From a virus (Duplodnaviria; Heunggongvirae; Uroviricota; Caudoviricetes): a stretch of DNA of 5,101 nt. Of this stretch, positions 851 through 3,976 are shown one piece after another (positions within the stretch are counted from its first letter, which is position 1; every line of letters begins with the position of its first letter). A model generated the notes under the pieces. That model was not told the origin of the DNA. It saw only the letters and a list, made by a program, of their open reading frames with translations, and ran no database searches. Both the position numbers and the translations under genes were made by a program. The stretch lies in the IMG/VR virus record IMGVR_UViG_3300029043_000076; one strand, 5' to 3'.

Positions 851-894
851 AACGGATAAAGGTATTCAAGCCTGACACATCATGCGCTGTATCG

Positions 895-985
895 TCGCCG
901 TATTCCCGTATTAACAGAGACCGTAGCCCGACGGGGAACTCCTTCTGCGAGAGTGTGCGGGAATAATCAAAAACGATGCACACCG
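895..985. other. Non-coding element with dyad symmetry (arms TATTCCCG 901-908 and CGGGAATA 958-965); candidate structured RNA or protein-binding site
   Basis: 8-bp inverted-repeat arms separated by 49 nt. The stretch GACGGGGAACT..CTGCG.GAGTGT.CGGGAATAAT.AAAACGATGCACAC.GGGTTT closely matches, as far as I can recall, the lambda sequence lying between bor and the ORFs upstream of cos. No ORF frame is conserved across it. Confidence 0.3.
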
Positions 986-1190
986 GGTTTTTACCGCGTT
1001 TATGGTTCGCGGGTTTGTCCCTCATGCTCGCCAGTCCTGTGCGGGGGTGGAAGAAACAGGATACTCACACAGATTCTTGTGGGCACGATGCTATTCCTTT
1101 CTGGATTATCCCGATGCCATTCATGCAAGGCGCTGTATCAGACGTTCGTCATGGCTGTCAGGCTGACGGGTCCTCCCGGTGGGGTGGCCT

Positions 1191-1382: not shown

Positions 1383-1874
1383 ATGGATCATGAGTTGAAA
1401 AACCTGGTGCTGAATATTAATCAACTGGCGGCTTTATCTGGTCTGCACCGCCAGACTGTCGTGGCAAGACTGAAAAACATTCGTCCCGCTGGTGGACATG
1501 ACAAACTCAAGCTATACCGGTTGACCGATATTCTGACTGAATTTATGGGGTTACCACCGCCGGTTGCTGAGGGCAAAATGGATCCACATGAACGCAAAGC
1601 CTGGTATCAGTCTGAACGTGAGCGTCTTAAGTTCGAACAGGAAACGGCACAACTCATTCCGGCCAGTGATGTCAGACGGGAGTTTGCCATCTGGGCAAAA
1701 GCGGTCGTGCAGGTGCTGGAGACATTACCGGATATTCTGGAACGTGACTGCGGCCTGCAGCCTGCCGCTGTGAGCCGTGTTCAGTCCATTATTGATGATC
1801 TGCGCGATCAGATAGCCCTGCGGGTGACCGAAGCAGGTGCGGATGATGAGGAGGAATTACAGCAGGAGGAGTAA
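1383..1874 (+). CDS. Terminase small subunit (Nu1-like)
   Basis: 163 aa, immediately upstream of and overlapping the large terminase (TAATG). N-terminal helix-turn-helix-like segment LNINQLAALSGLHRQTVVARL, then a PAGG...LY motif comparable to lambda Nu1 (KKQLADIFGASIRTIQNW ... RGGGKGNEVLY); acidic C-terminus. GGAGG at 1374-1378 sits 4 nt before the ATG. Confidence 0.85.
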   Translation: MDHELKNLVLNINQLAALSGLHRQTVVARLKNIRPAGGHDKLKLYRLTDILTEFMGLPPPVAEGKMDPHERKAWYQSERERLKFEQETAQLIPASDVRREFAIWAKAVVQVLETLPDILERDCGLQPAAVSRVQSIIDDLRDQIALRVTEAGADDEEELQQEE

Positions 1875-3976
1875 TGCTGAATCAGGAAACCGCAAAGGCA
1901 GCACGAACCGATTCAGGTTATATCCTTCGCGCACCGAGACGAATGCGGGTTGCTGATGCCGTTGCTCAGTATATGCGGGTGCCCATGGGGGCAGGGAACT
2001 CAGTCCCGTGGGATCCGCTGGTGGCACCGTATGTTATTGAGCCGATGAACTGCCTGGCCTCGCGTGAATACGACGCAGTGATATTTGTTGGCCCGGCACG
2101 AACCGGCAAGACTATCGGCCTGATTGACGGCTGGGTGATTTACAACGTGATTTGCGACCCTGCGGATATGCTGATCATTCAGATGACGGAGGAAAAAGCC
2201 CGCGAACACTCCAAAAAACGACTCGCCAGAACGTTTCGCGTCAGCCCGGAAGTGGTCAGTCGCCTGAGTCCGAACAAAAATGACAACAACGTTTATGACA
2301 GAACATTCCTTGCTGGCAACTACCTGAAAATCGGCTGGCCGTCAGTCAATATCATGTCCTCATCAGATTATAAATGCGTCGCGCTGACGGATTATGACCG
2401 TTTTCCGGAAGATATTGATGGCGAGGGGGATGCTTTCTCTCTTGCCTCAAAACGTACCACAACATTTATGTCCAGTGGTATGACGCTGGTGGAGAGTTCC
2501 CCCGGCAGGGATGTGAAGGATGTGAAATGGCGACGGACTTCACCGCATGAGGCTCCACCAACCACTGGGATACTGTCGCTCTATAACCGTGGCGATCGCC
2601 GTCGCTGGTACTGGCCCTGTCCACACTGTGGTGAGTATTTTCAGCCCTGCGGCGATGTGGTTGCTGGTTTCCGTGATATTGCCGATCCCGTGCTGGCAAG
2701 TGAGGCGGCTTATATTCAGTGTCCTTCCTGTTCAGGACGGATTATGCCTGAACAAAAACGTGAGCTGAACGGACGTGGGGTCTGGCTGCGGGATGGTGAA
2801 TCCATCAATGCGGATGGCAGTCGTTATGGTGATCCCCGACGCTCACGTATTGCGTCATTCTGGATGGAGGGTCCGGCAGCTGCTTACCAGACACTCTCGC
2901 AACTCGTTTACAAACTGCTTACTGCAGAACAGGAATACGAGACAACCGGAAGTGAAGAAACACTCAAGACGGTTATCAATACCGACTGGGGATTACCTTA
3001 TCTTCCCCGCGCCAGCATGGAGCAACGAAAAAGTGAACTGCTTGAGCAGCGGGCAGAGCCAGTTCCTTCCCGCAGTGTGCCGGATGGCGTTAATTTCCTT
3101 GTGGCGACAGTGGATGTGCAGGCGGGACGTCATCGCCGTTTTGTGGTTCAGGTAACGGGCTATGGCAGCCGTGGCGAACGCTGGATTATTGATCGTTACA
3201 ACATCACGCAGTCATTGCGCGGTGACAGCGACGGGGAGAGCCAGCGAATTGATCCGGCCAGTTATCCGGAAGACTGGGATGTCCTGCTGACGGATGTTTT
3301 TCATAAAAGCTGGCCGCTGGCCTCCGATCCTTCTCAACAAATGCGACTGATGGCAATGGCGGTGGACTCCGGCGGTGAAGACGGGGTCACTGATAATGCC
3401 TATAAATTCTGGCGTCGTTGCCGTCGTGATGGCCTTGGTAAACGTATTTACCTGTTTAAGGGCGACAGCATCCGGCGCGCAAAACTGATCACCCGTACAT
3501 TCCCTGATAACACCGGACGAACGGGCCGACGGGCGCAGGCCGCAGGTGATGTACCGCTCTGGCTTCTTCAGACGGATGCCCTGAAAGACCGGGTGAATAA
3601 CGCGTTATGGCGTGACTCGCCAGGTCCCGGCTATGTGCATTTCCCTGACTGGCTGGGGAGCTGGTTTTACGACGAACTGACGTATGAAGAGCGGAGCAGT
3701 GACGGGAAATGGAGTAAGCCGGGTCGCGGTGCCAACGAAGCTTTTGACCTGATGGTGTATGCCGAGGCTCTGGTCATTCTGCATGGATACGAAAAGATCC
3801 GCTGGCCGGATGCACCGGAGTGGGCGAGCCGGGAAACCTGGCTGGAGTGTGTCCCGGACAGTACCGAACCGTCACCCTCACCGGAACCGGTATCCACGCC
3901 TGTTAAAAAACAAAAACGGAAGAAAACAGTAACTGACGATGTTAACCCCTGGCTGACTTCCGGAGGATGGTTATGA
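1874..3976 (+). CDS. Terminase large subunit (lambda gpA family)
   Basis: 700 aa. Walker A GPARTGKT (nt 2090-2113). CPHCGEYF motif with a second CPSCSG (nt 2618-2731) paralleling lambda gpA ACPHCGEE. Nuclease-region motif FLVATVDVQ comparable to lambda YLTAGIDSQ. AGGAGGAG ribosome-binding site directly upstream. Gene order Nu1-A-W-B as in lambda. Confidence 0.95.
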   Translation: MLNQETAKAARTDSGYILRAPRRMRVADAVAQYMRVPMGAGNSVPWDPLVAPYVIEPMNCLASREYDAVIFVGPARTGKTIGLIDGWVIYNVICDPADMLIIQMTEEKAREHSKKRLARTFRVSPEVVSRLSPNKNDNNVYDRTFLAGNYLKIGWPSVNIMSSSDYKCVALTDYDRFPEDIDGEGDAFSLASKRTTTFMSSGMTLVESSPGRDVKDVKWRRTSPHEAPPTTGILSLYNRGDRRRWYWPCPHCGEYFQPCGDVVAGFRDIADPVLASEAAYIQCPSCSGRIMPEQKRELNGRGVWLRDGESINADGSRYGDPRRSRIASFWMEGPAAAYQTLSQLVYKLLTAEQEYETTGSEETLKTVINTDWGLPYLPRASMEQRKSELLEQRAEPVPSRSVPDGVNFLVATVDVQAGRHRRFVVQVTGYGSRGERWIIDRYNITQSLRGDSDGESQRIDPASYPEDWDVLLTDVFHKSWPLASDPSQQMRLMAMAVDSGGEDGVTDNAYKFWRRCRRDGLGKRIYLFKGDSIRRAKLITRTFPDNTGRTGRRAQAAGDVPLWLLQTDALKDRVNNALWRDSPGPGYVHFPDWLGSWFYDELTYEERSSDGKWSKPGRGANEAFDLMVYAEALVILHGYEKIRWPDAPEWASRETWLECVPDSTEPSPSPEPVSTPVKKQKRKKTVTDDVNPWLTSGGWL

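Follow-up and report, generated by a model that had tools for sequence, protein, structure and literature searches.

A block of about 180 bases in the late region of lambdoid phages most likely represents a structured RNA, so far uncatalogued, that forms part of the late transcript of the phage. We describe it in a 5,101-nucleotide stretch of DNA from a tailed phage (Duplodnaviria; Heunggongvirae; Uroviricota; Caudoviricetes; IMG/VR record IMGVR_UViG_3300029043_000076), referred to below as the window, where it lies on the + strand downstream of the lysis gene Rz and comprises three domains: a long interrupted hairpin (hairpin A), a smaller domain B and a last hairpin (hairpin C). Comparison of variants shows that the predicted base pairing in hairpins A and C has been kept by compensatory substitutions across at least three clades, and we consider it highly probable that the RNA structure of the + strand is under selection.

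Extent and predicted structure of the block

A sequence-only reading of the window had drawn attention to a dyad-symmetric non-coding element at 880-1000 that resembles the region next to bor in lambda. The dyad is real: its arms TATTCCCG (901-908) and CGGGAATA (958-965) are perfectly complementary and lie 49 nucleotides (nt) apart. The conserved unit, however, extends well past a lone dyad of 65 nt: it is about 180 nt long and has three domains. Coverage of the window by 213 related loci climbs from 0.48 to 0.92-1.00 at 881-900, is about 0.62-0.65 up to 1060 and falls to 0.19 beyond, and several unrelated flank classes adjoin both edges; these steps and flank classes therefore place the unit at about 884-1062 rather than 880-1000. 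The likeness to lambda is borne out by a nucleotide match of window positions 883-990 to lambda NC_001416 46868-46974 (81.7% identity, E 2e-18), in the interval flanked by the minus-strand genes bor (46459-46752) and lambdap78 (47042-47575). The idea that conservation with lambda persists inside an otherwise mosaic region also holds. Both edges of the block are mosaic junctions.

Taken alone, the dyad is unremarkable. An 8-nt inverted repeat is within chance, the same 831-nt spacer holding three perfect ones. Folding 880-1000 as a single sequence yields z-scores of -1.1 for the + strand and -0.45 for the minus strand (-2.7 and -0.5 when trimmed to the hairpin). Thus, the case rests on comparison across sequences. 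The features of the block, all on the + strand, are as follows.

884-1062, whole conserved non-coding block with three structured domains (coverage edges, flank classes and RNAalifold)
888-895, 5' arm of helix H1 (TGTATCGT), pairing with 973-980 (RNAalifold)
896-900, 5' side (CGCCG) of the asymmetric internal loop between H1 and H2, unpaired in all consensus folds
901-911, 5' arm of helix H2 (left dyad arm 901-908 plus 909-911), pairing with 955-965
922-926, 5' arm of helix H3 (CGTAG), pairing with CTGCG at 945-949 (RNAalifold)
927-944, variable apical region with a mini-stem C928-C929 / G934-G935; its length varies
945-949, 3' arm of H3, pairing with 922-926
955-965, 3' arm of H2 (right dyad arm 958-965 plus 955-957), pairing with 901-911
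966-972, 3' side (ATCAAAA) of the internal loop, part of the most conserved stretch, ATAATCAAAAACGATGCA
973-980, 3' arm of H1 (ACGATGCA), containing the ATG at 976
985-1021, domain B, with GGG 985-987 pairing with CCC 1019-1021 (closing helix from RNAalifold)
994-998 and 1008-1012, inner hairpin of domain B (CCGCG / CGCGG) with a 9-nt loop
1034-1040, 5' arm of hairpin C (GTCCTGT), pairing with 1056-1062
1041-1055, 15-nt loop of hairpin C (GCGGGGGTGGAAGAA), with a terminal GAAGAA
1056-1062, 3' arm of hairpin C (ACAGGAT), with a mosaic junction directly 3' of it

Hairpin A thus consists of H1 (8 bp), a 5/7-nt internal loop, H2 (11-13 bp, with A914/C915 able to pair with T954/G953), H3 (5 bp) and a variable tip, from which Stx2_PV12-type and Hafnia-type copies lack 10 nt. 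In the 53 distinct variants of its core, RNAalifold and a hand-drawn model agree on H1-H3, and 97.3% of the cells (base pairs counted sequence by sequence) are paired. The 966-972 stretch is invariant or nearly so across the same 53 variants, and ATCAA.AACGA persists in the Hafnia-type clade. Two further features of this hairpin were considered and rejected: a site for integration host factor, of which only the WATCAA half is present at 966-971 (by eye); and pairing of the pyrimidine-rich tip with the loop of hairpin C, for which the CUUCU motif is not conserved in the PV12, Sp10, L189 and Hafnia variants (by eye).

The inner hairpin of domain B reads CTGTG/CGCAG, CAGCT/GGCTG or GAGCG/CGCTC in other types when the sequences are read directly; the domain is left out of the formal counts because MAFFT misaligns its stem among types. 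In hairpin C the loop motif GAAGAA is invariant in 34 of 34 variants, the Hafnia type included. A role of the GGAAGAA loop as a boxB/nut site or a Shine-Dalgarno sequence was rejected, there being no pentaloop, boxA or conserved downstream start codon. In the curated record of phage 21 (locus L222, 1528-1682) the ribosome-binding site and start of a 45-amino-acid hypothetical gene lie inside this loop (ATGGTGGAAGAA...); the start codon occurs only in variants with the loop GCGATGG and is absent from most types. Hafnia-type homologues (L226 4709-4890, and 27 IMG/VR loci, L229-L257) carry an extra conserved stretch, GAGCAATACAGTGTGTTTTCACTGAGAGCACAC, with a small hairpin, past hairpin C.

Compensatory changes across divergent clades

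Three groups of sequences were compared: the Escherichia coli/Shigella variants, the Salmonella ES18/SPN3UB group and a divergent Hafnia-type clade. The last of these came from a covariance-model search with hairpin A, which covered the sequences of related loci collected in this analysis and gave a 45.9-bit match (E about 1e-11) in Hafnia phage Pocitis76 that BLAST misses. A pattern derived from this match led to 29 IMG/VR loci, 27 of which fit the model. The clade is only about 55% identical to the E. coli forms and keeps all three domains, including the 9-nt loop of domain B and the 15-nt loop of hairpin C with its GAAGAA.

The sequence-only reading had noted one position at which a base pair is kept through a change, and had proposed alignment and covariation analysis as a check. 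The position stands: the ninth pair of the dyad is G-C in lambda (TATTCCCGG...CCGGGAATA), T.G in the window (909/957) and C-G in most other variants. It is one among many compensatory events, and the alignments revealed both compensatory changes and conserved structure among the homologues. In H1, the pair T890.G978 alternates with C-G and U-A, and two pairs are replaced on both sides by G-C in the Hafnia-type clade. In H2, compensatory changes arose separately in lambda (to G-C), in the Salmonella group (U-A to C-G, C-G to A-U and C-G to U-A) and in the L189 group (C-G to U-A), and the Hafnia-type clade has them at four pairs. In H3, T924.G947 alternates with C-G, and the Hafnia-type helix reads CAGUC/GACUG, so that four of five pairs are changed on both sides with pairing kept.

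For hairpin A with the Hafnia-type sequences included, in an alignment fitted to the model, 14 of the 26 pairs are changed on both sides (141 cells) with pairing kept. The covariation score is 0.403 against a shuffle mean of 0.182, none of 500 shuffles reaches it, and controls in which the structure was slid along the alignment show at most 4 pairs changed on both sides. When the Hafnia-type sequences are left out, 4 pairs and 16 cells are changed on both sides, a cell count reached by 0 of 500 shuffles. All seven pairs of hairpin C are changed on both sides in an ungapped alignment that was anchored on GAAGAA and is independent of the structure (score 0.496 versus 0.194 in shuffles, 0/500 reaching it; slid controls at most 0.113). 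Across the whole block, RNAalifold on 21 representatives below 95.5% identity predicts 36 pairs. Of the cells, 98.3% are paired, and both sides have changed at 9 pairs, a number again unmatched by any of 500 shuffles (slid controls at most 4). The same helices were recovered by RNAalifold from two independent alignments.

The fitting strand

Since a U.G pair on the + strand corresponds to A.C on the minus strand, wobble pairs can be used to tell the strands apart. The whole block has 78 G.U cells at 16 pairs on the + strand versus 5 C.A cells at 4 pairs. This count is biased by the way the structure was derived, and the reverse complements were therefore folded separately. The consensus energy is -30.35 kcal/mol on the + strand (covariation term -2.0) versus -19.9 kcal/mol on the minus strand (term -0.1), with 98.3% and 88.5% of cells paired, respectively; the mean single-sequence minimum free energy is -30.1 versus -26.6, and 43 of 53 variants fold more stably as the + strand. 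The Salmonella H2 stem has two C.A cells, which are G.U on the minus strand, so the asymmetry is strong but not absolute. By these sequence comparisons the strand of the late transcript is favoured as the fitting strand.

Genomic context and distribution

The block is found between the lysis cassette, together with accessory 'moron' genes, and the DNA-packaging genes. Of 188 cases, 187 have it in the orientation of Rz, and the same orientation is seen at all Hafnia-type loci in which Rz or an endolysin gene is included. In the Sakai prophages Sp9, Sp10 and Sp12 it starts 10 nt past the Rz stop codon; elsewhere accessory genes intervene, either bor on the minus strand or Rha-like, KilA-N and DUF4406 genes on the + strand. 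Its 3' neighbours are either accessory genes that run leftward (ybcV/p78, ylcI) or, at a distance of 100-400 nt, genes for small terminases, of which at least six unrelated types occur. In many Hafnia-type loci, small terminases of three types start about 350 nt after the core of hairpin A (core A). Core A is conserved as much as or more than the adjacent Rz: the identities are 81% and 72%, respectively, against lambda, 90.5% and 64% against Sakai Sp10, and 79% and 81% against SPN3UB.

Four contigs (L189, L199, L211 and L212) have the block twice, at a spacing of about 950 nt and each time after a + strand gene, which suggests that gene cassettes move together with a copy of the block. In L189 the copies (5056-5236 and 6006-6186) are non-identical, and the order is Rz, a DUF4406-like gene, block, gene, block and Nu1.

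The element is present in 432 phage records, including lambda, 21, mEp460, many Shiga toxin (Stx1/Stx2) phages and Salmonella ES18/SPN3UB; 734 phage records have an Rz homologue. Among 5426 complete E. coli genomes, 4577 (about 84%) contain it, at 11,720 places in all, with a median of 2 and a maximum of 11 per genome, and it is multicopy in O157:H7. The copy of E. coli K-12 is in DLP12 between borD and ybcV, where the reference annotation is empty. The element is absent from the P22-like phages examined (Sf6, L and UPF_BP1) and from the Yersinia and Klebsiella loci examined.

Plasmids account for 694 of the places; in the one looked at, from avian pathogenic E. coli, the copy adjoins the bor homologue iss. 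Hairpin A of this copy (plasmid pEND_Eco 123-1, locus L126 1495-1603) has an inserted C in its left arm and broken pairs in H2 and H3, a pattern consistent with decay in a relaxed context outside a functional phage. Assemblies labelled Pseudomonas, Kitasatospora, Cohnella, Flavobacterium, Vibrio and others also yield exact copies of the lambda version (loci L128-L163); the contigs concerned measure about 48.4 kb or about 3.5 kb, and contamination of public assemblies with lambda control DNA is the apparent source. A pattern scan of genome contigs returned mostly such contamination in unrelated taxa plus Escherichia, and no diversity was gained.

Searches for promoters, terminators and known RNAs

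A leftward promoter had been suggested for the element. On neither strand of 500-1450 did a scan turn up a pair of sigma-70 -35/-10 hexamers spaced 16-18 nt apart, against 1.3 expected in shuffled sequence; the scan used the consensus only and leaves activator-dependent promoters possible. The terminator scan gave no intrinsic terminator in the block, and no variant has a conserved U-run 3' of hairpin A or C. The covariance-model check against Rfam that the sequence-only reading had also called for matched no family: Rfam 15 returned only two chance-level eukaryotic matches for the whole window at E<=1, both outside the element, and for 860-1080 at E<=10 a single match to mir-982 (16 bits versus a gathering score of 70). 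Scans for transfer RNA and transfer-messenger RNA gave nothing relevant, and a full-text search of a paper collection for the sequence of the region, for small RNAs at borD/ybcV and for RNase III processing of the late transcript found no relevant paper.

Data on the RNA chaperone Hfq are available for prophages that carry the block. Tree et al. 2014 (PMC4104026) reported abundant orphan peaks, EcOnc10, EcOnc11 and EcOnc12, near the element in enterohaemorrhagic E. coli (EHEC) Sakai, from Hfq cross-linking and analysis of cDNA (Hfq-CRAC). Coordinates in NC_002695.2 are about 134-139 nt (about +137) above those in Table S2 of that paper, as calibrated by AsxR, EcOnc03 and AgvB. After correction, a placement of these peaks on the right half of the element, minus strand, is ruled out; they coincide with the minus-strand Rho-independent terminator and 3' end of a ylcI-like gene, about 25 nt past the right edge of the block. 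The genes concerned are as follows.

ECs_1967, ECs_1788 and ECs_2255, ylcI-like genes of EcOnc10/11/12: locus L214 2950-3005 in Sakai Sp10, with equivalents in Sp9 and Sp12

The position of the peaks on this terminator implies that leftward transcription ends before the block in Sp9, Sp10 and Sp12. No Hfq-CRAC peak lies inside the block in EHEC Sakai after correction, the cultures having been uninduced and the late + strand not sampled. Within the limits of these uninduced data, the block lacks the marks of an Hfq-dependent small RNA, namely its own promoter, a poly-U terminator and Hfq binding.

A possible role in the late transcript

The Q-dependent late mRNA is the sole transcript common to all contexts of the block, and a cis-acting RNA role is therefore favoured. 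The chances are about even that the block is a conserved, non-coding structured RNA module on this transcript, at the lysis/packaging junction, that acts in cis in processing or stability. The suggestion of a functional RNA or a DNA site had come from the sequence-only reading: its RNA half is strengthened by our analysis, whereas its packaging site and leftward promoter are unsupported.

As a processing or stability determinant, the block would act on the late mRNA in cis, and cleavage or 3'-end protection at hairpin A would uncouple the decay and expression of the lysis mRNA from those of the mRNA for packaging and head proteins. The invariant purine loop of hairpin C may make this hairpin a recognition site for a protein or for another RNA. 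RNase III signals such as T7 R1.1 and lambda sib are built of two stems, lower and upper, with an asymmetric internal loop between them. A comparable architecture, with about two helical turns and an internal loop, is present in hairpin A, whose H1 and H2 can stack; such an architecture would be necessary, but is not sufficient, for an RNase III site. It is unlikely, though it would be of wider consequence, that the three hairpins, with the invariant GAAGAA loop, form an autonomous RNA domain of about 180 nt that is released, or is recognised by a specific factor, and that sets the balance or timing of lysis versus packaging and head gene expression, or that titrates a host RNA-binding protein or nuclease in the lytic cycle.

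Several points weigh against these readings. Cells count sequences, not independent events, and a large share of the covariation signal comes from the Hafnia-type clade, that is, from one deep split. The single-sequence fold of the whole block is unremarkable (z = -0.14). Some natural variants have C.A or other mismatches in H2 and hairpin C, a number of which look like crossovers between CCTG/CAGG and CCGG/CCGG stem types. Domain B is missing in lambda itself, and its absence from lambda-type copies means that it is dispensable there. From the P22-like, Yersinia and Klebsiella loci that lack the element, it follows that the block is not indispensable for a lambdoid late operon. The invariant unpaired stretches (ATAATCAAAAACGATGCA and GAAGAA) exceed the needs of a simple nuclease hairpin. 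A specific processing or stability mechanism, for which the arguments are architecture and position, is put forward here as a tentative and rather doubtful proposal.

Alternative explanations

The same conserved unpaired segments could be read as the active parts of a trans-acting non-coding RNA of about 100-180 nt, excised from the late transcript or made from an unrecognised promoter of its own, that uses the unpaired AUAAUCAAAAACG and the loop with GAAGAA to act on targets in the host or the phage, or to titrate a protein. Such an RNA would account for primary sequence conserved beyond the needs of pairing and for a self-contained, multi-hairpin module with sharp boundaries, and prophage moron regions are rich in small RNAs (PMC4104026). 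We hold it to be fairly unlikely in view of the lack of a promoter-like site, of a U-tract terminator in the block or at its 3' edge, and of an Hfq-CRAC peak in the uninduced cultures of that study. A DNA-level element, either a linker spread by recombination or a hairpin that serves as a signal when the + strand is single-stranded DNA (for instance in priming or assembly, as in G4/phiX), would explain why mosaic junctions lie exactly at both edges, why duplicate copies bracket an inserted gene and why some stems look recombinant between two stem types. G.T is moreover the most tolerated mismatch in DNA hairpins. Lambdoid phages are known to recombine readily in the lysis/packaging region (PMC3945230). 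Compensatory change at 14 of the 26 pairs of hairpin A and at all seven of hairpin C, together with greater variation in loops than in stems, is however not what spread by recombination predicts; the strand asymmetry of G.U versus C.A would not arise from a cruciform in duplex DNA; and the structure is intact in a clade that, at about 55% identity, is too divergent for homologous exchange with the E. coli forms. For lambda, we also know of neither a priming signal nor a stage of single-stranded DNA at this site, and an explanation at the DNA level is improbable.

A function for the minus strand, as a promoter or upstream element, an untranslated region or a small RNA of bor/iss or ybcV/p78, is suggested by the position of the block between two leftward genes in lambda and DLP12, by the copy kept upstream of iss at the ColV iss locus, by a terminator-like inverted repeat at 768-811 to the left of the block in the window, and by an open reading frame (ORF) at 849-1025 that some annotators call on this strand. 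It is made very improbable by the poorer pairing of the minus strand (88.5% versus 98.3% of cells; -19.9 versus -30.4 kcal/mol), the want of a promoter-like site in 500-1450, the breakage of the ORF in lambda and the leftward gene's terminator that precedes the block in Sakai Sp9, Sp10 and Sp12. In the window, furthermore, only cos lies to the right, and many contexts have no leftward gene on either side. The PhoP-box-like repeat of lambda bor, too, is outside the element: a direct repeat that matches the PhoP-box consensus, TGTTTAgggttTGTTTA, precedes the start codon of bor by 53-69 nt (locus L001 1538-1554; lambda 46805-46821, minus strand) and so stands in the interval that separates this gene from the element. 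A small protein gene has next to no probability. The window does contain candidate ORFs, and a few carry annotations as hypothetical proteins: the minus-strand ORF 849-1025 (58 amino acids), the + strand ORF from the ATG at 976, of which the part 3' of the block (1024-1224) matches phrog_17397, and the phage 21 ORF that starts in loop C. The minus-strand ORF matches no Pfam or PHROG family, and the Prokaryotic Genome Annotation Pipeline (PGAP) calls no gene at the block in most E. coli genomes. The absence of a conserved frame, which the sequence-only reading had claimed, is upheld: the frame from 976 has 82 codons in the window and its lambda counterpart ends after 18; close variants differ by 1-nt indels, and some copies lack 10 nt of the tip; every candidate frame has stop codons in the lambda and Salmonella copies; start codons are not conserved; and the covariation of the stems is not explained by codon degeneracy in any frame (worked by hand). 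Scarcely more probable are a packaging-associated DNA site, as had also been suggested, and a mimic of the type I-E CRISPR (clustered regularly interspaced short palindromic repeats) repeat that would serve as an anti-CRISPR-like RNA decoy. The block lies about 135 nt from cos in the window and 135-330 nt upstream of it in several cos phages, but the distance is 1.5 kb in lambda, some phages have the element twice, and it is present in ES18, which we take to be a headful-packaging phage. The H2 arms (901-911/955-965) do resemble the E. coli type I-E repeat GAGTTCCCCGCGCCAGCGGGGATAAACCG, with which the Sp10 variant (L214 2826-2846) shares GCGGGGATAA. The Salmonella and Hafnia H2 stems (L223 814-965 among the loci compared) keep pairing while covarying away from the repeat sequence, and the likeness is therefore probably coincidental; the 43 nt inserted here where the repeat has its tetraloop, moreover, do not resemble a Cas6e substrate.

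Other features of the window

The late region of the window is that of a lambda-like phage and is identical in sequence to Escherichia phage vB_EcoS-569R4 along the compared stretch. Further head genes follow the large terminase. The main landmarks are as follows.

100-567, + strand, Rz
815 nt, spacer between Rz and the small terminase
1383-1874, small terminase, DUF1441-type
1874-3976, large terminase, gpA-type

The terminator scan of the window region gave sites only at 741-760 and 1314-1329. The former is an intrinsic terminator on the + strand, AGCCTCGTATTCGCGGGGCT followed by TTTTATT, and 3' of it the segments 768-786 and 793-811 form an inverted repeat of 19 nt. Positions 761-882 behave as a mosaic unit of their own, which 29-48% of related loci possess. 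At about 1169-1208 the window has a cos site like that of lambda, with a cosQ-like GGGTCCTCCCGG at about 1169-1180 and a 12-nt analogue of the cohesive end, GGGCGGGAGCGT, at 1197-1208 (lambda counterpart GGGCGGCGACCT), followed by CGCGGAAAAAGG; this cos would put the end of the virion chromosome about 135 nt to the right of the block. Two + strand ORFs match families of unknown function: 555-707 (phrog_11822) and 1024-1224 (phrog_17397). The latter is doubtful as a gene because it starts inside the conserved block and runs across cos.

Comparison with known systems

The closest parallels are RNase III signals of the T7 R1.1 and lambda sib/tI type, which share with the block a non-coding, intercistronic location and a long interrupted hairpin on the sense strand of a phage operon, with a lower stem, an asymmetric loop and an upper stem of about 24-26 bp in total. 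Like sib, which is downstream of int, hairpin A is also downstream of genes open to retro-regulation. Unlike these sites, the block has a branched and variable apex, adds domains B and C as well as long invariant unpaired segments, and bears no sequence similarity to them. Repetitive extragenic palindromic (REP) sequences and bacterial interspersed mosaic elements, as in malE-malF, where they lie between cistrons and stabilise the upstream mRNA, are likewise imperfect palindromes in operons that are transcribed, untranslated and possibly protective of 3' ends. REP sequences, however, are about 35 nt long and occur at hundreds of chromosomal intergenic sites in variable orientation, whereas the block is about 180 nt long and has one position and one orientation in lambdoid phages and prophages. 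Dispersal in either orientation, typical of REP and enterobacterial repetitive intergenic consensus sequences and of miniature inverted-repeat transposable elements, was not seen: in the related loci collected, copies lie downstream of Rz and in its orientation, and the median of 2 per genome tracks prophage content.

The 'boundary sequence' (bsq) features of Sf6 are also short conserved stretches at the junctions of mosaic modules in lambdoid genomes, and are reportedly linked to work by Clark and Casjens on HK620 and Sf6. We know of no secondary structure or covariation reported for them; the nearest, bsq7, is inside Rz, and Sf6 has no copy of the element. HK022 put and lambda nut boxB are phage hairpins that act in cis on the nascent transcript, and the GAAGAA of loop C recalls the boxB GAAGA. 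They differ in belonging to early operons, whereas the late operon is already Q-modified, and the 15-nt loop C has no GNRA-like pentaloop and no boxA. The anti-small RNAs AgvB and AsxR and the EcOnc RNAs (PMC4104026) share with the block non-coding conservation, fixed positions in late regions and many copies per EHEC genome. These RNAs, by contrast, are 51-60 nt long, Hfq-binding, antisense to the late transcript and located between Q and S, with their own promoter and Rho-independent terminator (PMC4104026); the block fits the sense strand, has none of those signals and shows no Hfq-CRAC peak in uninduced cultures.

Implications for lambdoid phages

On present sequence comparisons the block appears to represent a family of structured RNAs, so far uncatalogued, in lambdoid phages. 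It is absent from Rfam and unannotated in the reference records of lambda, phage 21 and E. coli K-12 (DLP12), even though lambda is among the most thoroughly annotated of genomes. In practical terms, it can serve as a marker of the lysis/packaging boundary in lambdoid prophages, it cautions against calling spurious ORFs that overlap it, and its covariance model detects homologues beyond the reach of BLAST. Should the processing or stability of the late mRNA be under its control, the block would influence the balance between lysis and virion assembly and, should this be true in Stx phages, would have a bearing on toxin release. An autonomous RNA domain, if such it is, would add a new regulatory layer to a paradigm system and to toxin-releasing prophages.

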